Shown: positions 8,654 to 56,809, counted from the first letter of the stretch. The stretch: DNA of 64,000 nucleotides from an uncultured Actinomycetota bacterium (GCA_963700375.1 CAVOXF010000006.1:348021-412020), one strand, 5' to 3'. Made by a program: numbers and translations. Notes: a model not told the origin generated them from the sequence alone.

Positions 8654-9625
8654 CTAGATGTTCTCCCCTTCGAAGATGTCGCTCACCGAAGCATCGGAGA
8701 AGATCGCGTTGATCGCACCGGCAAGGATTGGCCCAACCGAGAGCACCGTGATCTTGTCGAGGTTCTTGGCCTCTTCAGGCAGCGGCAGCGAGTTCGTGAT
8801 GATGAGCTCATCGATCGGTGCCGCCGCAATGCGATCGACCGCCGGCGGCGACAAGACCCCGTGCGTCGAGACAACTCGAACCGAAAGGGCACCGCGTTGT
8901 TTCAAGAGTTCTGCGGCGCCGACCACGGTGCCTGCCGTGTCGATCATGTCATCGACGATGATGGCGTTGCGGTCCTTCACATCGCCGACGACCCAGAGCG
9001 TCGAGGTTTCGTTCCGGACATCAGCGGCCCGGCGTTTGTGGACGAATGCCACACGGGCTCCAAGATGGGCGGCGTATCGGGAAGCCAGCTTGACCCGGCC
9101 GGAGTCCGGGGAGACCATTGTCGTTCGACCCTCGGTGGTCTTGCGGAGGTAAGCCGAAAACAGGTGGAGCGCGGTCAGATGGTCGAAGGGCTTGTCGACG
9201 AATCCCTGGATCTGGCCGGTATGGAGATCGAGGCTGACGATCCGGTCTGCTCCGGCGGCGACGAAGAGATCACCCATCAACCTGGCCGAGATCGGCTCGC
9301 GGGGCCGTCCCTTCTTGTCCTGCCTGGCGTAGCCGTAGAACGGCACAACTGCCGTGATCCGCTTCGCCGACGCCCGCTTGAGAGCGTCGATCATGATCAA
9401 CTGCTCCATGATGTTGAAGTTGAGCGGCTGGGTGTGGCTCTGGATCACGAAAGCGTCGGCACCCCGAACGCTCTCGGTGTAGTGGATGTAGATCTCGCCG
9501 TTGGCGAACACGGAACGCTCAACTCCACCGAGTTCCACGCCCAGAATCCGCGCCACTTCTTCGGCCAGGGGTTCATTGGCGGAACCCGAGAACACCATCA
9601 ACCGTTTCTGGCTCCGAAGCTCCAT
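8654..9625 (-). CDS. prs: Ribose-phosphate pyrophosphokinase
   Basis: It is 323 aa (LMVFSGSANEPLAEEVA...) with a PRPP-binding loop. Its start overlaps the glmU stop by 1 nt. Confidence 0.9.
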   Translation of the reverse strand: MELRSQKRLMVFSGSANEPLAEEVARILGVELGGVERSVFANGEIYIHYTESVRGADAFVIQSHTQPLNFNIMEQLIMIDALKRASAKRITAVVPFYGYARQDKKGRPREPISARLMGDLFVAAGADRIVSLDLHTGQIQGFVDKPFDHLTALHLFSAYLRKTTEGRTTMVSPDSGRVKLASRYAAHLGARVAFVHKRRAADVRNETSTLWVVGDVKDRNAIIVDDMIDTAGTVVGAAELLKQRGALSVRVVSTHGVLSPPAVDRIAAAPIDELIITNSLPLPEEAKNLDKITVLSVGPILAGAINAIFSDASVSDIFEGENI

Positions 9626-11004
9626 TACTCCCCGTCCTGAGACGCCCGATGCTTCCTTCGCTCAGCGTAGCCAGGGATCTCCTCTTGGAGCGAACGCTCG
9701 ACGGCGAGCGCCCCTGCCGAGACATCATGACTGATCACCGAACCGGCACCGGTGTAGGCGTCATCGCCCACCGTGACCGGGGCAACCAGGATCGTATCAG
9801 AGCCGATCTTGACTCGATCTCCGATCCGCGTTCGATTCTTCTCGAAACCGTTGTAGTTGGCGGTGATCGTCGCGGCCCCAATGTTCGAGTCCTCGCCGAT
9901 CGTCGTGTCCCCGATGTAGCTGAGGTGCGGGATCTTCGACCGGGGCCCGACCTGTGAGTTCTTGACTTCGACGAACGACCCGGCCTTCGTATCGACGCCA
10001 AGCTCGGTGCCTGGTCGCAGATACGTGAACGGACCGACCGCTGCCAACGGGCCGACCTTCGCACCCTCAATGACGGCGAACCGCACCACGGCCGCGGCGG
10101 CGATGCGGGCGTCGGTCGCGTGGACGCTCGGCCCCACCTCGGCTCCGTTCTCAACCGATGTGGCGCCCTGGAGGTAGACATCCGGGTAGATCGTCGCGCC
10201 TGCGGCGACCTCCACATCCACATCGATGTACACACGCTCGGGATCGAGCATTGCGACCCCGGACTCCATCAACTGCCCGTTGATCCGGCCCCGCAGGACC
10301 TTGGAGGCGACTGCGAGTTCGGCGTGCGAATTCACGCCGAGGCACTCGGCCTCCTCTGCGGCGACACTCGAAACCTTCCGAGCGTCGGCGGCGAGGATCC
10401 CGATCACGTCGGTCAGGTAGTACTCACCTTGATCGTTGTCGCTCCCGAGGCGACTGAGGGCGTCGCCGAGAACGGCAGCGTCGAAGGCGTAGACGGAGAC
10501 GTTCACTTCCGAGATCGCCCGCTGTCGCGCGTTTGCGTCCCGTTCTTCAACGACGCCGATGATCTCGTCGTTCTGCCGTTCCACCCGTCCGTACCCGGTT
10601 GGGTCGGCGAAGAACGCGGTGAGCATGGTGGCCGCGGCCCCTTCCCGGCGGTGCGTCTCGAGGACCGACTCGTACGTCGCAGTCCGCAAGAGCGGCATAT
10701 CACCGAGGATGACCAGGACGGTGTCGATCCCGGACCCGCACGCCGCGAAACCGACGCGGGCTGCGTCGCCCGTCCCGAGCTGTGGTTCCTGGACAACTCC
10801 TACGGCGTGCGCGGGCAGCGCGGCAACGACGTCGTCGGCGCCGTAGCCGACGACCACGACCGTCTCGTCAGCGGCGAGGGGTTCGGCAGCCGAAAGTGCC
10901 CACCCGACAAGGCTGCGGCCGCAGGCGCGGTGCAGCACCTTCGGCAGATCTGACTTCATCCTCGTGCCCTTCCCTGCGGCGAGCACGATCACGGCAAGAC
11001 TCAT
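9625..11004 (-). CDS. glmU: Bifunctional UDP-GlcNAc pyrophosphorylase / GlcN-1-P acetyltransferase
   Basis: Its N-terminus is MSLAVIVLAAGKGTRM and it has hexapeptide repeats. The longer ORF reads through tRNA-Gln (translated as GGWCNWQH...), so the start is placed at the internal ATG at 11004. Confidence 0.9.
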   Translation of the reverse strand: MSLAVIVLAAGKGTRMKSDLPKVLHRACGRSLVGWALSAAEPLAADETVVVVGYGADDVVAALPAHAVGVVQEPQLGTGDAARVGFAACGSGIDTVLVILGDMPLLRTATYESVLETHRREGAAATMLTAFFADPTGYGRVERQNDEIIGVVEERDANARQRAISEVNVSVYAFDAAVLGDALSRLGSDNDQGEYYLTDVIGILAADARKVSSVAAEEAECLGVNSHAELAVASKVLRGRINGQLMESGVAMLDPERVYIDVDVEVAAGATIYPDVYLQGATSVENGAEVGPSVHATDARIAAAAVVRFAVIEGAKVGPLAAVGPFTYLRPGTELGVDTKAGSFVEVKNSQVGPRSKIPHLSYIGDTTIGEDSNIGAATITANYNGFEKNRTRIGDRVKIGSDTILVAPVTVGDDAYTGAGSVISHDVSAGALAVERSLQEEIPGYAERRKHRASQDGE

Positions 11005-11020
11005 GGAACCTCCATGGAGA

Positions 11021-11095
11021 TGGCTGGGGGGACAGGACTCGAACCCGTACTGGATGGACCAAAACCACCTGTGCTGCCAGTTACACCACCCCCCA
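11021..11095 (-). tRNA. tRNA-Gln (anticodon UUG)
   Basis: It folds as a cloverleaf by hand. The acceptor stem is UGGGGGG/CCCCCCA. The anticodon stem is GGUGG/CCAUC and the loop UUUUGGU gives anticodon UUG. The T-loop is TTCGAGT and CCA is encoded. Confidence 0.85.
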
Positions 11096-11169
11096 ACGGG
11101 GTGGGTCAAGAGGTTAGACGGGGTGAGCGTGTTGCGAGCTGCGAGCAGGGCGAACCTGGACGCCGCACC

Positions 11170-48871: not shown

Positions 48872-49657
48872 CTATAGCTCGGTCCGGTTCCACATCCAGT
48901 AGGCGACGACGGTGAAGACGACACACGCGAGGCTCGTCGTCACGATGGCGCCGTACGACGGTACGGGGAGCCCCGAGATGATCGCACCGACAACGCTCGT
49001 CTCCTCCCCGTCGATCGGAACGACGAGGGACCACGGCAAGAGCGCCAGCAGACCGGGCAGGCTTCCCAACAACTGCTGGCCGAACGCGAACGCGAGAGGG
49101 ATCGCGATGACCGGCCCTGCCGAGTCGAAGACGGTTCCGAGCATGAGCGTGAGTGCGAGATAGAAGAGGAGATTGAGCGCTGCAACCGCTGCTCCGGCAG
49201 CGAACCGTGGGATCGAGACCTCGATGCCCGCGAGAGCCAATTGGATGAGCAGGGCTGCCGATGGGATCGCGATCATCGTGGCAACCACGCCAACCGCATT
49301 CGGTACGAGTTTGGCCGTCAGGAAGGCCTGCCTGGAGACCGGTTTGGACAGGACCCAGGCCGCGGTGCCGCTGCGCTTCTCGCCGACGACCACCTCCTGC
49401 ATGAGGATGGCGACGGCGATCGCAGCAAACATCGTCATCACGCCGTACAGGGTGAAGACATCAAGTCCGTCTGAAGCATCACTCCAAATGACCACGGCGA
49501 GGGATCCGTTGATCACCAGTGTCCAGAGCAAGGACTGCACCCACCAGTTGTTCGTCCGCCACCACGAGCCGAACGCTGCTCCCATCAGGTTGGACAGACC
49601 GCTGCGCCACCCACTCTGGCCGACCCGATCGAGGCCGGTCACACCCGTGTCAGACAT
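48872..49657 (-). CDS. ABC-2 type transporter permease
   Basis: It has six predicted TM helices. It immediately follows the ABC ATPase with a 4-nt gap. Confidence 0.65.
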   Translation of the reverse strand: MSDTGVTGLDRVGQSGWRSGLSNLMGAAFGSWWRTNNWWVQSLLWTLVINGSLAVVIWSDASDGLDVFTLYGVMTMFAAIAVAILMQEVVVGEKRSGTAAWVLSKPVSRQAFLTAKLVPNAVGVVATMIAIPSAALLIQLALAGIEVSIPRFAAGAAVAALNLLFYLALTLMLGTVFDSAGPVIAIPLAFAFGQQLLGSLPGLLALLPWSLVVPIDGEETSVVGAIISGLPVPSYGAIVTTSLACVVFTVVAYWMWNRTEL

Positions 49658-50612
49658 CGCTGCGGTCCTGTTGCACGAGATCAACGAACACGTCTTCGAG
49701 ACTGGCCCTGTTCCGCTTGAATTCCCTTACGACGAGCGAGTCGTCGGCAAGGAGGACTCGCTGGATTTGCGAGTCGGCGGCTTCGGTATCCGAGACCGCG
49801 ATGGTCAGGTGAGCTGAGTCCCCGGTCTCATCGACGGTGACTTCATCTACCCATGACTGTGCGACGAGCGCCGATCTCGCCCGTTCGACGTCGCCCTGCA
49901 CCTCCACCGAGTAGGAGGACTTGGTCTCCCTCTCGAGGATTGTGCCGATGGGGCCTTGAGCGACGATCTCTCCATGATTCAGGATGCACACGGTGTCGCT
50001 CACGCGTTGAACATCGTCGAGGATGTGGGTCGAGTAGAACACGGTCGACGTCGTGCGGAACTGCTCGAGTATCGAGAGTACATCCCGCCGACCGATCGGA
50101 TCGAGCGCGGCTGCGGGTTCATCGAGGATGAGCAGCTCCGGTGCGTGAATCTGTGCCTGCGCGATCCCGAGACGCTGCATCTCCCCGCCCGAAAACGTCT
50201 TGACGGGTCGGTCGCTCTTGTCGTTCAGGCCGACGAGCTCCAACATCTCCGAGACACGGTCGTCGATTCGGCTCGCGGGGCCCGAGAAGAAGAAGCCGGC
50301 CGCGAAGCGCAGCGTCTCTCGGGCCGTCATGTGCTCGTAGAACCTCGGTTCCTGTGGTAGGTATCCGACCCGGGAGCGGATGGCGGGGCTTTCACGCTCG
50401 ATGTCGAGACCGAAGATGGTTCCCGATCCTGCAGTCGGGCGAACCAGGCCGAGGAGCATCTTCATCGTGGTTGTCTTCCCCGCACCGTTCGGGCCGAGGA
50501 AGCCGAAGATTGAGTGGCGCGGCACCACGAGGTCCAGGTTCCTGACCACATCTACATCGTCGTAGGTCTTGGTCAGGTTCTCAGTGCGGACAATCGTCTC
50601 GTCGCGAATCAT
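49650..50612 (-). CDS. ABC transporter ATP-binding protein (ABC-2/DrrA-like)
   Basis: It has a Walker A motif GPNGAGKTT, an LSGGEMQR signature and a Walker B motif. The start is at MIRDETIVRTENL. Confidence 0.85.
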   Translation of the reverse strand: MIRDETIVRTENLTKTYDDVDVVRNLDLVVPRHSIFGFLGPNGAGKTTTMKMLLGLVRPTAGSGTIFGLDIERESPAIRSRVGYLPQEPRFYEHMTARETLRFAAGFFFSGPASRIDDRVSEMLELVGLNDKSDRPVKTFSGGEMQRLGIAQAQIHAPELLILDEPAAALDPIGRRDVLSILEQFRTTSTVFYSTHILDDVQRVSDTVCILNHGEIVAQGPIGTILERETKSSYSVEVQGDVERARSALVAQSWVDEVTVDETGDSAHLTIAVSDTEAADSQIQRVLLADDSLVVREFKRNRASLEDVFVDLVQQDRSDV

Positions 50613-50747
50613 GCCGTCATCCCGTGCGTCCGATCGAGGTCGAGTCCAGAACCTAGCGGAAATGCCCGCGGCGGGACCGACAATATGGCCGACTTCGTGA
50701 GCAGAGTGAACGGTGCCATCAATTGCCGGCGGCGATCCGGTCACGGA

Positions 50748-53700
50748 CTACCGCGTGGCGGCCCGCCTCGTTGCTCCCACGGCTTCGCCGAGCGGTCTCG
50801 CCTTGAGGGCGACCGCTCTTTCTTCCGCCTCGTCCAACAGCCGAGCCGCTTCGGGATCGGCTGCGTCGCGCTGGAGGAGAGCCTGTGCCAGCCGCCACTT
50901 GGCCTTGGCCGCGAGATAGGGCACATCGCTCCAGGCCTCGAGGGCGAGCCGCCAGAGGTCGGGGTCGTTCACCCCGTGTGCGCGTGCGAGGTCAGCAGTC
51001 GCCGTGGCCTCGGCAGCACGAGAGAACGGTGTCGAGACGCCGCCTGCTGCAAAACGACCGTGCCATTCATCGGCCGCCTGGATCCATTCTGACGTGGCAA
51101 TGCCCGACTCGACGCAGTCAGCAACGGTCTCGATCGCAATCGTTGCGAGGTACATCACCTGTCCCCATGCCTCATTCCTGTCGAGCAGCCGGAGACCCTC
51201 CGCTGCGACGCCGTATGCAGCCGACAGGTCTCCATGCCATCTGAGGTCTGAGACGCGACTCGCCCAGTAGGGACCCTGGAGCTGTGCATCCATCTCCTCG
51301 ATCGCCAGAGCTCCCATCCGATCGAGTTCGCGTTGCGTTGCCGCGTCATCACCACGCTCGGCCGCAAGTTCAAGGACACCGAGTGAGAGGTTGATATCGG
51401 CATGCTCCAGGTCCGCAGACTGGGGCATCGCCGCGAGGTGCTGCTGCGATTCATCCCAGCGACCCATTTCGAAGAGGAGACCTGAGGCATTCCCGTGCGG
51501 CATGACTTCCCACAAGTGCCAGCCCACCTCCCGGGCGCGCGCGATGCCCCGCTCGGTGAGTTCGAGAGCCTCCGCAAGCCGGCCGTTCTGACCCAACACC
51601 GACCCTTGGTTGACGAACACGATGAGCTGTTGCCGCAGCACCCCGAGCGTCTGCGAGCGCTCAGCCAGCAGTTTGAAGCAGTGGCTCGATTCGTCGATGT
51701 CCCCAAGACTGCCGGTCGCCGTCACCAGCGCGACGAGGGCTTGGAGTTCGGCCTTCTCGCTCCCCGTCTCCTTCGACAGCGCCAGCGCCTCCCGAGCGGT
51801 TTCGATCGCCTCGGAGTACTGGGCATTCAGCATGAGTCCCGCGGCCGTGCGCGCGAGGATCTCCGCATGGGACCGATTCGGCGGTTCCTTGGGTACAAGG
51901 CGCAGGGCTTCGTCGGCCATCTCGCGCGATTGCACCTGCCGACCCTGGAGCCACACCTGCTGGCTCATCGCGTTGATCAACAGAGCTCGTGTTCGATCAT
52001 CGAGATCCTTTCGGGCCAGCTCGGTAGAGATTCGGTCGGTCGCCGCCTCCGGGTATCCGCCGACGGCACCCTGCACTTCGACGAGTCGGCTCACGAGGTC
52101 GGCATGGTCCGCCCCTGCCGTGCGTTCCGGATCATCGAGGTCGTCCCAGAGGTCAAGGGCAAGTTCCATATAGCCAATCGCGTCTGAATCAGCGAACGCT
52201 GCCTCTGCGGCGTCGGCTGCGGCCATGGAGCACTCGAGCGCCTTGTCGGGCCGCTCGGCGTGGAGCCAGTGCTTCAACAGGCCGGCCGGTGGCGCGTTCC
52301 GCCGTTCGAGAGCCTCACCGACGGCCCGGTGCAGGCGAGTACGACGCCTGATTGCGAGTCCGTCGTACAGTGTCTGACGAACGAGCGCATGGGCGAATGC
52401 GAACTCATCGGCACCGTCACCTTCGACGACGACCCTGGCATTGACCGCCGCATCGACAACAGCATCAACCGAACGCTCATCGAGACCCGCGATTGACCCT
52501 GCCACATCGATCGAGAAGGTCGGTCCAATCACCGCCGCCACTTCGAGTGTGGATACCGCGTCTGCGCCGAGCCGATCGACCCGTGGGCCGATGACCTCGC
52601 ACAACCCTTCCGCAATGCCGTAGTCATCGATGGCCGTGTCGGAGTTCCACTGACCGTTGGCATCGACGGCGCCCTCATCCTGAAGGTGGCTCGCGATCTC
52701 TTCAATGAAGAACGGGTTGCCCTGCGTGTCCTCTGCGATCGACTCGACGACGTCCGCCCCTGCCACGGCGCCGAAACGGGCAGACACCATCTCGTGAACC
52801 TCACCGTCGGTCAACCGCTGGAGAGGAATCCGGATGATGCGGTGCTCTTGGCGGAGGTCCGTGAGGAGGCTGGGAAGAGGGTGGCTCCGAACGAGATCCG
52901 TGTCGCGGTATGTACCGATCAGGAGTGCGGTGAGCTCATCCTTGCGGGCCAGGTGGGCCAGCACCGCGACGGTGTGTTCATCGGCCCAGTGAAGATCGTC
53001 GAGCACGACCACGGTCGGTGGCTCATCTTCTTCTGACGCAAGGAGAGCGGCAAACGCCTCGGCCATCAGGTACTGCGTAGTGTCGAGGTCGGTCTGGATC
53101 GGCACCGGCAGCCCCTTGGGCACCTCGATACCGGGCACCAACTGTGCGATGTTGCCCGCAGCCGGACCAACGCCCTGCAAGAGGCGCGGTCGCGCCCCAA
53201 GCACTGAGCGGGCGACCTCGAGGAATGGCTGATAGGGAGTCGCCGCGTCCGGAGTGCACCGACCGGCAACGACGACGGCTCCCCGATCGGCGGCTGTCCG
53301 ACACCAGGCCGAGGTCAGCGCTGTCTTGCCCAACCCGGGCTCTCCGATGACAGCGGCGAACTGCACCGATTCGTTGGTTGCGGCATGGGCATCATCGAGT
53401 TGCTCGAGCGGCGCCTCGAGACCGATGAGGCTTGTCGGAATGGCACGACTGAGAAGAACAGGGAATGGAACAGCGGTGCGATCCTTCGTGCTTGCTTCCC
53501 GCGGTGTGTCGGATATCGACCAAAGCTCGATCGCATCGTCGACGCCCTTGACGTGCTGCGCGCCGATCGACGTGTATCCGAAGTGAGCTCTCCGACCAAT
53601 CAGGGACCGGACCGTGTCGGCAATGAGGAATTACCCTGCATCAGCCGCGTCGCAGACCCTCGAGGCCACAGCCACCGGAAGACCGATGACATCGCCGTCT

Positions 53701-54020
53701 TCCTTGGCGACTTCGTCGGCGTTGATCCCGATCCGTACGCCGATCCGGCGAGCCTCTTCGGCCTGGCTGCTGTAGAGGGCGATCCCTTCCTGGATGCCCT
53801 GGGCCGCTACCACGGCATCCACCGACGAGTCAAAGACGGCGAGGGCACCGTCGCCGAGATTCTTGATGAGCCGACCACCAGTCGGCAGCAGGGCGTCGCC
53901 AATGATCCGGTCGTGTTCTGCGCCAATCGCGTCGGCGACATCATCTCCGAGTCGCTCCCGGAGGCGCGTTGAACCGACAAGATCCGTGAACAGAACCGTC
54001 GCCAATCCACTCGTCGCCAT
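50748..54020 (-). CDS. Class III adenylate/guanylate cyclase - AAA/STAND ATPase - TPR regulator, interrupted by one in-frame TAA at 53631-53633
   Basis: The cyclase domain (VLFTDLVGST...IKNLGDG...GINADEV) is at 53631..54020. The same reading frame continues after the TAA as FLIADTVRSLIGRRAHF...LKGV..., then a P-loop AVIGEPGLGKTAL, a VVVLDDLHWAD motif and about 500 aa of TPR-like helices (50748..53366). Confidence 0.75.
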
Positions 54021-54141
54021 GAATCTGAACCTATCAGTGCCGCACCCGGTACCCCCCGGACAAGTCGAGGCGTTCCCCGTTCCTCGCCGATGCGGCCGAT
54101 CTCACAGCGCACGCATCCTGCGAGGGTATCCTCCGGCGCCA

Positions 54142-54192
54142 CGCCCTCGTAGCTCAGGGGATAGAGCACCGGTTTCCTAAACCGTTGTTGGG
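54142..54192 (+). pseudogene. tRNA-Arg (anticodon CCU) 5' fragment: acceptor 5' strand, D-arm, anticodon arm and variable region only
   Basis: The fragment GCCCTCGTAGCTCAGGGGATAGAGCACCGGTTTCCTAAACCGT matches the actinobacterial tRNA-Arg(CCT) 5' two-thirds. No T-arm or 3' acceptor strand follows. The antisense ORF translates as the classic tRNA artefact LYPLSYEG. Confidence 0.5.
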
Positions 54193-54653
54193 GGTCTTTC
54201 CCGCCAAGGAAGAACGGCTGGAAGCCTTGCTGTGCTTGCGTTTTCGCCTCTCATCCTCTCGCATCATTTCTCGCGTTTTCACTCCCGTTGCGGCCCAGGT
54301 GCGGCCCAAACGCGGCCCAGAGCTTCCGCACTCGAAACGAGCAGCGGCAAGTGTCCGTCGAGGAGTTTCAACGAGTATCGACACAGAACCGGCGCGGGGA
54401 ACCCGAGCAGCAGCGTCGGCCATGGTTGGCCAGCGACTTGGAGGCAGGATTCCGGGCCAGCGTTGGAGCTCGGAGCCGAATCAGGCCAATCTCCTGACCA
54501 GATCTTCATGGCGAACCACAACGCCATCCCTCCACCTTCATCGCGAGGAGTCACGTTCACGGGTGTGGTGTATGGGGGGTTCCGTTCTGAGGGTGCTTCC
54601 TGTTGGGTGATCACCGCGTCAGGCGCACAGTTGTACGTGCCAAGTGACCGTGA

Positions 54654-54863
54654 GGAGAACGCGGTGTGTGGCGCTTCGACCGGGGTGACCGAGCTACCAG
54701 CCGGCAAACGGTTCGCCGCTATCGGCGGGATCTACCCGGCGAGCTGACCGACGCGTATGCCGGATTCATCCACTTCCACGATCACCACCGAGTCCACCGA
54801 GTACTCGGATGGGCCACCCCCACCAGCCTCATCCAGGACAACCTCCCCGTAGAGCACATCTAG
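54654..54863 (+). mobile_element. Remnant of an IS481/IS3-type (rve) transposase C-terminus inside a lower-GC, non-coding-looking stretch (about 54190-54860)
   Basis: The tail ...DLPGELTDAYAGFIHFHDHHRVHRVLGWATPTSLIQ matches the integrase-core C-terminal motif (YNxxRxHxxLGxxTPxx). Stops lie directly upstream in the same frame. No intact DDE domain was found. Confidence 0.45.
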
Positions 54864-56809
54864 GCGCTCTTGATCCTCGTACCGTTCATCACGCGCCGTG
54901 ATCGGATCAGTTCGGCGACGGACCACGCTTGGAACGGGCATCCTGTTGCCTGGTGAGGCACGGTTCCTTCGGCCGTCTCCGATACGGACCCGAGGCCGTA
55001 CTCGGTGAGGTGCAATTCGAGGCCATCGAGAAGCCCCCCAAGGTCGCCGCCGGCGCGGTCGACCGCGTCGGTGAACGGGCCGATCATCCACGGCCACACG
55101 GTCCCTTGGTGGTAGGCGGCGTCGCGTTCGGCGGGGCCTCCGCGGTGGCGGCCCTGATACGCCGGGTCACGAGGAGAGAGCGAACGCAAGCCTATGGACG
55201 TCAACAGGTCAGCGCGGCACGCAGCCACGATTCGGGCCGCTTGCGCAGGGTCGTCGATGGGTCCATACGGAAGCGAGACCGCGAGGAGTTGGTTCGGCCG
55301 GAGTTCCATCGAGACTGCGCCGGAGGGGTCGATCCGATCCGCGAGACCGAGCCCGTTGACGGGGAAGGTTCGTCTGAACGACGCCACGGCCCGCTGTCGC
55401 AGGGCCTCCCACTCGCCGGCGTCGAGTCCGACCCGGGTCAGCAGATCGACCGCTGTCCCAAGCCCGTTGATCCACAGCGCCTCTACCTCGACCGGATACC
55501 CGGCCCGCGATGTCACCGGTCGGCCGTCGATACGGGCGTCCATCCATGTCAGCGCCCAGCCGTCCGCACCGCCCCGCAACAGTCCGGTCTTCTCGTCGAC
55601 GCCGATACCGAAACGAGTTCCAGCTCGGTGTGATGTCAGCACGCTCACGACGGTGTCGGCCAGGTCGGCGGCGAGATCGAGATCGCCGGTGACGGTGACG
55701 TGCCGTCCGAGGGCGTGGAGGAACCACAGGGTTCCGTCGATGGTGTTGTACTCCAGGGTTCCGACGTCGGCGGTATTGGCGAGCATGCCTTCCGATACGG
55801 TGTCGGCCGCCCGAGCGAGGACCGACCGGCCCTCTGCGGCCCGACCGGTGCACAGGAAGAGGCCCTCGTACGATGTGAACAGGTCGCGGGACCATTCCCC
55901 GAACCAGGGGTAGCCGGCGACGGCTCCGCGTCCGCCGGGTGTCTCGACGATGAATTGGTCAGCCGCCACGGCGAGGATGCGGTCGATGTCGTCCCGCGCA
56001 CCGGCCTGCACGGCGAGTGCGGCGCTGCGCGTCCGCGCTGCGGCGATGATCGCCGCAGCGTCAGTCGGCGCGGCGCCGAGATCGGTCGTCGCCGTGACTC
56101 CCATCACGTCGCCGGCCTTGAGGTCCGCGTGGAAGGTACCGGCCGCCCAGAGGTCCTCGGTGGCGCCCAGTCCTCTGGCCGCCTCCTCACGATGGAATTC
56201 GCCGCGGTACCACGATCCGCCGGGCACATAGCCAGGTCCGTCCACGCGATAGCGATCCTCGAACACGAAGCCGGACGCCGTCGGCTCGATGTCCGGGTCG
56301 GCCGCGGCGAACCGGTCCCCGTGCTGGTCACGCCAAGTGCATAGGGGCGTTACCTCCAGTCGAGCCTCACCGGTAGTGACCCGGTGGACAATCGCGACGG
56401 TGGCCGTTCCGTGCGCCATGGCCACCTCGACTTCGATCTGGACCGACCCGAGGTCATAGCGCCAACGCGGTACCCCGTCGTCCAGGTCGAATCCAGCCAG
56501 GTACTCGTCTCCGCGAGGGTCGACGGAGTTGGCCCATTCGTGGGTGGCCAGACGGATCCGATGGTCGCCGATCACCACGACCGCGTCCAACGCGGCGAGG
56601 CCGAGCATCCGTGAGGCACCGGCCGGTGCCGTGGCCGCGATCAGCAGCCCGTGATACCTTCTCGTGCGCATTCCTGCCACGGTGCCTGCGGCGTAGCCCC
56701 CCAACCCGTCGGCCACCAGCCATTCGCGCGTGTCGCGGCTTCGTCGAGGGAGCCGCAGACGCCGCGACCGAACGCGATGCGGACTCCCGGCATCATCGGG
56801 TCCAATCAC
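54860..56809 (-). CDS. Glycogen debranching enzyme-like protein (GDE_N + amylo-alpha-1,6-glucosidase GDE_C)
   Basis: It has an N-terminal GDE_N-like region and a C-terminal (alpha/alpha)6 region with YHQGTVWPW. Confidence 0.75.
   Translation of the reverse strand: MIGPDDAGSPHRVRSRRLRLPRRSRDTREWLVADGLGGYAAGTVAGMRTRRYHGLLIAATAPAGASRMLGLAALDAVVVIGDHRIRLATHEWANSVDPRGDEYLAGFDLDDGVPRWRYDLGSVQIEVEVAMAHGTATVAIVHRVTTGEARLEVTPLCTWRDQHGDRFAAADPDIEPTASGFVFEDRYRVDGPGYVPGGSWYRGEFHREEAARGLGATEDLWAAGTFHADLKAGDVMGVTATTDLGAAPTDAAAIIAAARTRSAALAVQAGARDDIDRILAVAADQFIVETPGGRGAVAGYPWFGEWSRDLFTSYEGLFLCTGRAAEGRSVLARAADTVSEGMLANTADVGTLEYNTIDGTLWFLHALGRHVTVTGDLDLAADLADTVVSVLTSHRAGTRFGIGVDEKTGLLRGGADGWALTWMDARIDGRPVTSRAGYPVEVEALWINGLGTAVDLLTRVGLDAGEWEALRQRAVASFRRTFPVNGLGLADRIDPSGAVSMELRPNQLLAVSLPYGPIDDPAQAARIVAACRADLLTSIGLRSLSPRDPAYQGRHRGGPAERDAAYHQGTVWPWMIGPFTDAVDRAGGDLGGLLDGLELHLTEYGLGSVSETAEGTVPHQATGCPFQAWSVAELIRSRRVMNGTRIKSA

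Follow-up and report, generated by a model that had tools for sequence, protein, structure and literature searches.

The 64,000-nt stretch of DNA analysed here (the window) comes from an uncultured Actinomycetota bacterium (GCA_963700375.1 CAVOXF010000006.1:348021-412020) and contains a gene for a large signalling protein that is interrupted by one stop codon. Translation of the minus strand from 54020 down to 50748 gives 1090 codons with a single internal stop, a TAA at codon 130 of 1090 in the context CDAADAG-stop-FLIADTVRSL; the residues flanking it in the translation are VASRVCDAADAG on the N-terminal side and FLIADTVRSLIGRR on the C-terminal side. A mechanical ORF list reports the two parts as ORFs of 129 aa (53631..54020) and 872 aa (50748..53366) in a common frame, in agreement with the preliminary description of this DNA, which had placed a cyclase ORF and an AAA-TPR ORF in one frame separated by a single TAA. 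A tblastn search with the orthologue P0001 as query recovered the locus as one segment spanning 54020..50763. The gene has no indels, and its frame is otherwise perfectly kept. A 1090-codon frame with one stop that is collinear over its whole length with orthologues of some 1090 aa lies far beyond what chance would produce. The features of the gene are collected in Table 1.

Table 1. Features of the interrupted gene, in window coordinates.
Feature	Position	Strand	Description and basis
Whole disrupted gene	50748..54020	-	Class III cyclase domain, AAA_16 (STAND) NTPase and TPR repeats; translation, and Pfam on the joined sequence
Premature TAA, codon 130	53631..53633	-	Replaces Gln of the cyclase motif G-Q-I-L-V-T/S; orthologue codon CAG
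5′ fragment, 129 codons	53634..54020	-	N-terminal three quarters of the cyclase homology domain
Codons 131-170, C-terminal cyclase strands (FLIADTV...G...VKGV...ELWS)	53511..53630	-	Severed by the stop; PF00211 match crosses the stop
GTG, codon 219	53364..53366	-	Earliest in-frame ATG/GTG/TTG past the stop; gene callers' start of the 872-aa ORF; inside AAA_16
AAA_16 / STAND NTPase, residues 198-367	52920..53429	-	PF13191, E=5e-21, 76 bits
Walker A GEPGLGKT	53322-53345	-	Motif read in the translation
C-terminal helical-repeat (TPR-like) region, about residues 641-1090	50751..52100	-	Sub-cut-off TPR_12 and TPR_2
Codon 317, TAC (Tyr)	53070..53072	-	Invariant in orthologues; intact in the window, TAG in L001

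The domain make-up was read from a Pfam run on the joined sequence, in which the stop had been replaced by Gln. In this reconstructed protein, positions 9-179 of the 183-position Guanylate_cyc profile (PF00211) match residues 7-167 with a score of 25.6 bits, above the cut-off of 21.9; the 129-aa fragment alone reaches 19.5 bits against the same cut-off and covers profile positions 9-113 of 183. The solved cyclase homology domains 3mr7, 1ybt (M. tuberculosis Rv1900c/LipJ) and 4wp3/4wp9 (Ma1120) align over their full length to residues 5-175 (E=3e-22 to 1e-15), which places the stop within the catalytic fold, and the 129-aa product lacks the last ~40 residues of that fold. The sequence past the stop had been described as an open linker; it is open, but by the Pfam and PDB alignments it encodes the C-terminal third of the cyclase domain. 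Both metal-binding aspartates, D13 (FTDLVGST) and D57 (LGDGALAVF), align with the Asp residues of 3mr7 and 1ybt and are shared by 90% or more of the aligned orthologues; the 129-aa fragment also retains R121, the Arg of helix alpha-4. Comparison with 3mr7 thus shows both Asp and the Arg kept in a copy truncated at residue 129, whereas the Asn of 3mr7 (VNVAARL) corresponds to an Ala (PVAVASR) both in the window copy and in every aligned orthologue. We take this Asn to be the transition-state Asn that pairs with the helix alpha-4 Arg; the Asn-Arg pair (G-x-x-V-N-x-A-A/S-R) is a marker of catalytic competence and not of fold membership. Because of the Ala at this presumed transition-state position, even the intact orthologues may be weak or atypical cyclases.

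Downstream of the cyclase domain, the AAA_16 match (76 bits) is above its cut-off of 32.6 bits, and a Walker B motif (VVVLDDLHWAD) can be read in the translation of the window copy. In the C-terminal region of the window copy, TPR_12 reaches 25.0 bits (cut-off 30.1) and TPR_2 20.9 bits (cut-off 27); the orthologues and the near-identical 772-aa database protein P0005 have precomputed matches to PF13424, PF17874 and PF07719. PF00196, the LuxR/GerE helix-turn-helix, has no match on the joined protein and occurs only in more distant matches such as P0080. The GTG from which the 872-aa ORF is called lies 88 codons past the stop and 21 residues into the AAA_16 match. No Shine-Dalgarno-like purine run precedes this GTG at 53366, which is weak evidence against a restart because the native start is likewise without a clear Shine-Dalgarno sequence.

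Among 5.8 billion proteins searched, upwards of 25 full-length single-protein orthologues were found; they measure 1079-1142 aa, many of them exactly 1090 aa, and show 43-77% identity over 96-100% of the query. Their sources are mostly Acidimicrobiia or Actinomycetota MAGs, and the best match among GTDB genomes is an uncultured Acidimicrobiaceae MAG at 64% identity. These actinobacterial class III cyclase-AAA_16/STAND-TPR proteins have the same length and domain order as the reconstructed protein and resemble it from end to end; on the sequence comparison, the architecture is of a widespread actinobacterial cyclase-AAA_16-TPR type. Motifs common to the Acidimicrobiia orthologues include FTDLVGST, LGDGALAVF, GLPVAVASRVC, GEPGIGKT and VVLDDLHWADE. 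The JGI annotation of the group is 'class 3 adenylate cyclase/tetratricopeptide (TPR) repeat protein', and the group is known from sequence alone. No split protein was found among the full-length orthologues, and those aligned are all single proteins, which disposes of the possibility, named in the preliminary description as a refutation of its reading, that orthologues are naturally encoded as two genes.

At the column of the stop, Gln is present in 15 of 15 aligned full-length orthologues, within the motif GQILVTDTV, and its codon is CAG in each of the four orthologue DNAs that were read (L081, L082, L002 and L003). The preliminary description had expected a Gln codon here, correctly as to the residue but not as to the codon, which it gave as CAA. 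With CAG in the orthologues, a TAA needs at least two substitutions, so the single-step change from CAA to TAA that had been proposed does not account for it. The wider proposal, that the locus was formerly one gene for a protein of about 1090 aa and that a nonsense mutation has broken it at a conserved Gln codon, is borne out by the intact single-protein orthologues.

Both further assemblies of this lineage that were found carry the stop. Near-identical proteins in the database are fragments only, namely P0005 (772 aa, 99% identity) and its cluster-mate P0121, which is exactly the 872-aa ORF of the window and sits on an NCBI/ENA contig of 830,685 bp; the search of 5.8 billion proteins found no intact allele above 77% identity, only these two truncated products. 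P0005 lies on an 820,706-bp ENA contig (ERZ25039600 contig_22607; the locus is here called L001), which matches the window at 99.52% identity over 9437 nt, ungapped, with 45 SNPs. Codon 130 of L001 is TAA, and none of the 45 SNPs falls at the stop. A third assembly was found by a pattern scan of JGI metagenomes in which the stop codon was entered as NNN; this locus (Ga0316195_10017808, here L083) shares 99.8% identity with the window across 1057 nt and has TAG as codon 130. Three independent assemblies of one species-level lineage (NCBI/ENA, ENA ERZ25039600 and JGI Ga0316195) therefore all have a stop at codon 130. Because they differ from one another at other sites, a base-calling error is excluded, and the occurrence of the mutation in no fewer than three genomes of close relatives indicates that, as read from these assemblies, the stop is real and inherited. 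L083 groups with the window at seven of eight sites, and the TAA of the window is nevertheless common to L001. The codon may accordingly have passed either from CAG through TAG to TAA, or from CAG through CAA and TAA to TAG. L001 carries a second nonsense mutation, in which Tyr317 has changed from TAC to TAG (window position 53070), as seen in one metagenome assembly, and the gene caller has split the locus into products of 98 and 772 aa.

The differences between the window and L001 indicate how the gene has evolved relative to its neighbours. Within the 3.27-kb gene there are 21 SNPs, 13 non-synonymous and 8 synonymous, and in the 6.2 kb of flanking sequence, which comprises four and a half genes (an ABC transporter pair, an AMP-binding enzyme, an S9 peptidase and the start of the next gene), there are 24, 7 non-synonymous and 17 synonymous. 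The contrast between the two ratios (13:8 and 7:17) gives a modest signal of relaxed selection (Fisher p=0.038, from 45 SNPs). When the differences were polarised with the orthologues, nine of the 13 non-synonymous changes proved to be derived in the window copy, and five derived replacements in the window (L157V, R201L, R391Q, E431D and L841P) fall at residues invariant in 15 orthologues. L083, which covers three of the polarised differences (codons 157, 193 and 201), has the window allele at L157V and R201L and the L001 allele at 193, so both of these replacements are real variants. Set against the orthologue group, the window copy has the stop at Gln130 together with 14 substitutions at columns where all other orthologues agree, compared with six in P0001, which stands at the same nearest-neighbour distance as the window copy, and zero to six in the other orthologues that have a neighbour of at least 72% identity. 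One of these replacements, G102D, lies in the conserved RIGINAGE strand, and three others, P470A, R474C and R479P, fall in the YGIPEGVREVIGRR motif.

A Tajima relative-rate test against P0001 with eight outgroups showed no acceleration (~80 versus ~80 unique changes), which implies that the gene spent most of the history of its lineage under constraint. The lack of both indels and an overall rate acceleration indicates that the inactivation is recent, and, in view of the non-significant relative-rate test, no long-standing decay is claimed. Together, these patterns indicate a recently inactivated gene at an early stage of decay. That the stop varies between TAA and TAG yet stays a stop is also compatible with a stop that is maintained.

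We consider the locus to be, with a probability of roughly 0.9, an ordinary young unitary pseudogene of a cyclase-STAND-TPR signalling gene of about 1090 aa. The ancestral single gene would have joined a class III nucleotidyl-cyclase output to a STAND/AAA_16 switch and a TPR sensor or scaffold. In the intact protein, the TPR region may have sensed a ligand or partner, the AAA_16 module would then have switched and oligomerised, and the cyclase domains would have been brought together as active dimers, a mechanism suggested by that of STAND proteins in general. A nonsense mutation at Gln130, from CAG to what is now TAA or TAG, would have inactivated the gene inside the cyclase fold. Translation is expected to end at codon 130; the resulting 129-aa fragment, in which the cyclase domain is without its final core strands, would in all likelihood neither fold nor be active. 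Efficient translation of the STAND-TPR part is improbable, since a ribosome would find no in-frame start until 88 codons on, inside the NTPase domain. This position of stop and restart argues against the stand-alone cyclase and orphan STAND module into which the gene had been proposed to be split. Subsequent drift would have added the second stop in one lineage and, in the lineage of the window, the replacements at orthologue-invariant residues. On this reading the inactivation would be recent relative to the split from the nearest intact orthologue, at 76% identity.

Three other explanations for the stop have to be weighed against a pseudogene. The preliminary description had allowed for a sequencing or assembly error hiding a true CAA or CAG codon in an intact gene. 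One base change would restore a sense codon were the ancestor CAA, and the window apparently derives from a metagenome-type assembly, where consensus errors can occur. The same error would have to have arisen in three assemblies from different data sets, even as different stop codons, and would have to turn the CAG of the orthologues into TAA by two changes; moreover, synonymous changes make up most of the SNPs of the flanking genes, a pattern of real variation and not of noise. We regard an error as next to impossible. The stop could instead be decoded, for example as Gln, by programmed readthrough or local recoding, giving a regulated full-length protein. Such a mechanism would agree with a downstream frame that stays open over 960 codons and in which conservation can still be recognised, and with the persistence of a stop, TAA or TAG, at codon 130 in three strains. 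It is difficult to reconcile with the second in-frame stop of L001, 187 codons downstream, with the excess of non-synonymous changes at invariant residues, and with the fact that none of the 15 aligned orthologues has a stop at codon 130. In folding, a 121-nt segment around the stop and beyond it shows no advantage over shuffled versions (z=0.32), which removes the candidate stimulatory RNA element, and the TAA is directly followed by U. UAAU is the most efficient terminator context in termination studies of E. coli. TAA also serves as the normal terminator of glmU (9625..11109, minus strand), where it overlaps the prs ATG, and this rules out a reassignment of TAA; of 27 high-GC3 stop-to-stop frames that are 600 nt or longer, 16 end in TGA, 10 in TAG and 1 in TAA, and no other long frame was found that needs an internal TAA as sense. 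A suppressor tRNA was likewise discarded as a candidate, the tRNAs of the window being only an ordinary tRNA-Gln(TTG) and a tRNA-Ala(CGC). As regards RNA elements that might stimulate readthrough, an Rfam search of 53500-55000 found nothing but a partial tRNA. A tRNA-Arg(CCT) is truncated at 54184, either by a rearrangement of the genome or by a join in the assembly. Readthrough, which had been raised at the outset, therefore appears highly improbable.

A functional gene fission would hold that the stop has been selected and that the N-terminal cyclase fragment, the restarted STAND-TPR protein, or both are functional. The stop persists in three strains, the called products of 872 aa (window) and 772 aa (L001) keep Walker A and Walker B, and the expression of truncated mycobacterial mclx forms has been argued to be possible (PMC4452763). 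Against this, the break lies inside the cyclase fold and not at a domain boundary, the earliest restart costs the AAA_16 match its first 21 residues, and in L001 the STAND part carries a further break, which falls between Walker A and Walker B. The replacements R201L, R391Q and L841P at invariant sites of the window copy, and the finding of no split protein among the full-length orthologues recovered, speak against it as well, and we judge a fission to be quite improbable. Taken more broadly, the stop might be retained either because low-level readthrough doses the full-length protein or because the 129-aa half-cyclase or a restarted STAND-TPR protein regulates paralogous cyclases; we think this very unlikely, and were it true, the locus would represent a gene fission that is functional and has become fixed in a lineage of Acidimicrobiia. 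No compensating paralogue was found within the window.

The nearest studied relatives of the pseudogene by architecture are the mclx genes of M. tuberculosis (Rv0386, Rv1358 and Rv2488c), which encode a cyclase homology domain followed by an ATPase and a LuxR domain (PMC4452763). These genes have repeatedly been pseudogenised in clinical strains by what are reported as frameshift indels, and the high conservation of the remaining sequence has been read as a sign of recent pseudogenisation (PMC4452763). Like them, the window gene combines an N-terminal class III cyclase with a P-loop ATPase and has suffered a single disabling mutation in an otherwise conserved sequence. Unlike them, it has no LuxR/GerE helix-turn-helix, its lesion is a nonsense substitution and not a frameshift, and there is no orthology between the two; judged by domain content, the window gene is not a member of the mclx family. 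By analogy, however, the phenomenon is the same, namely the recent loss of a redundant signalling gene. Partial profile similarity extends to the TOMM kinase/cyclase fusion (TIGR03903) and to Pycsar PycC, in the shared cyclase and AAA_16/TPR regions. NCBIfam gave far-sub-threshold matches only, and the TIGR03903 score of 157.2 bits against a cut-off of 705.75 led us to reject membership of the TOMM family. PADLOC returned only weak PycC matches confined to the cyclase domain (E=2e-8), and membership of PycC, and with it of a defence system, was likewise rejected.

The practical consequence is a correction to annotation: the ORFs of 129 and 872 aa would be best described as one pseudogene, and not as a 'stand-alone cyclase' and an 'AAA family ATPase'. 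Beyond annotation the case has little importance. It does offer a clean and datable instance of the recent loss of one member of a large cyclase-STAND-TPR family in uncultured Acidimicrobiia, and it has a parallel in the analogous mclx genes of M. tuberculosis, which have been pseudogenised repeatedly (PMC4452763). A public protein collection meanwhile has entries for the 872-aa and the 772-aa fragment as proteins in their own right, and in the gene calls for L001 the 5′ fragment is supplanted by a spurious 195-aa antisense ORF.

The premature stop of the cyclase gene lies in a local cluster of base changes within a conserved beta-strand, and this cluster is common to all three stop-carrying strains. 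Over the five codons from the stop onward, 7 of 15 bases differ between the window (TAA TTC CTC ATT GCC) and the nearest orthologue (CAG ATC CTG GTC ACC), such that the residues following the stop read F-L-I-A in the window and I-L/V-V/I-T in all orthologues. Upstream of the stop, the alignment column of window residue 117 (alignment A1, 15 full-length orthologues) is Ala throughout the ~1090-aa cyclase-STAND-TPR orthologue group, in the motif GLPVAVASRVC. We take this column to correspond to the transition-state Asn that is canonical in class III cyclases. Even the intact orthologues may carry a cyclase domain with weak catalytic activity or a repurposed function.

In the public assembly of L001, a contig of the same species-level lineage, a 195-aa antisense ORF is annotated as a gene, replacing the 5′ cyclase fragment. 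This ORF gave no Pfam match and is most likely a gene-calling artefact due to the pseudogene. The ABC-transporter ATPase and ABC-2 permease genes downstream of the cyclase gene have an identical arrangement in L001, and the premature stop could exert a polar effect on them if they are co-transcribed with the cyclase gene.

Features discussed in the text, with window coordinates
Feature	Window	Strand	Remarks
glmU stop TAA overlapping prs ATG (TAATG)	9623-9627	-	
tRNA-Gln(TTG)	11021-11095	-	just upstream of glmU
ABC-transporter ATPase + ABC-2 permease pair	48872-50744	-	directly downstream of cyclase gene, same strand
195-aa ORF antisense to cyclase fragment	53385-53972	+	L001 5095-5682 (-)
Change cluster at and after stop	53616-53633	-	comparison with nearest orthologue
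tRNA-Arg(CCT), incomplete copy	54143-54184	+	counterpart in L001 4850-4924

A tRNA-Arg(CCT) gene is divergently oriented to the cyclase gene. It is complete in L001, and L083, a JGI contig that also carries a stop at codon 130, matches L001 across it free of gaps; the window copy stops after nucleotide 42, exactly where synteny with both contigs ends. The missing 3′ part is absent from the whole window, as are the upstream genes of L001 (DMT_YdcZ, abhydrolase, amine oxidase and response regulator). Beyond the break, the window has instead a set of carbohydrate genes, namely those for GDE, an MGH1-like/GH63-like hydrolase, gluconolactonase, glucose dehydrogenase and a rhodanese-domain-containing pyridine nucleotide-disulphide oxidoreductase; no integrase was observed. 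The discontinuity represents either a rearrangement with its breakpoint inside the tRNA or an assembly join; a real rearrangement would mean that this tRNA-Arg(CCT) copy has been lost from the genome that contains the window.

Elsewhere in the window, the mechanical glmU ORF, with a TTG start at 11109, overlaps tRNA-Gln(TTG), and because of this overrun the true glmU start must lie further in.
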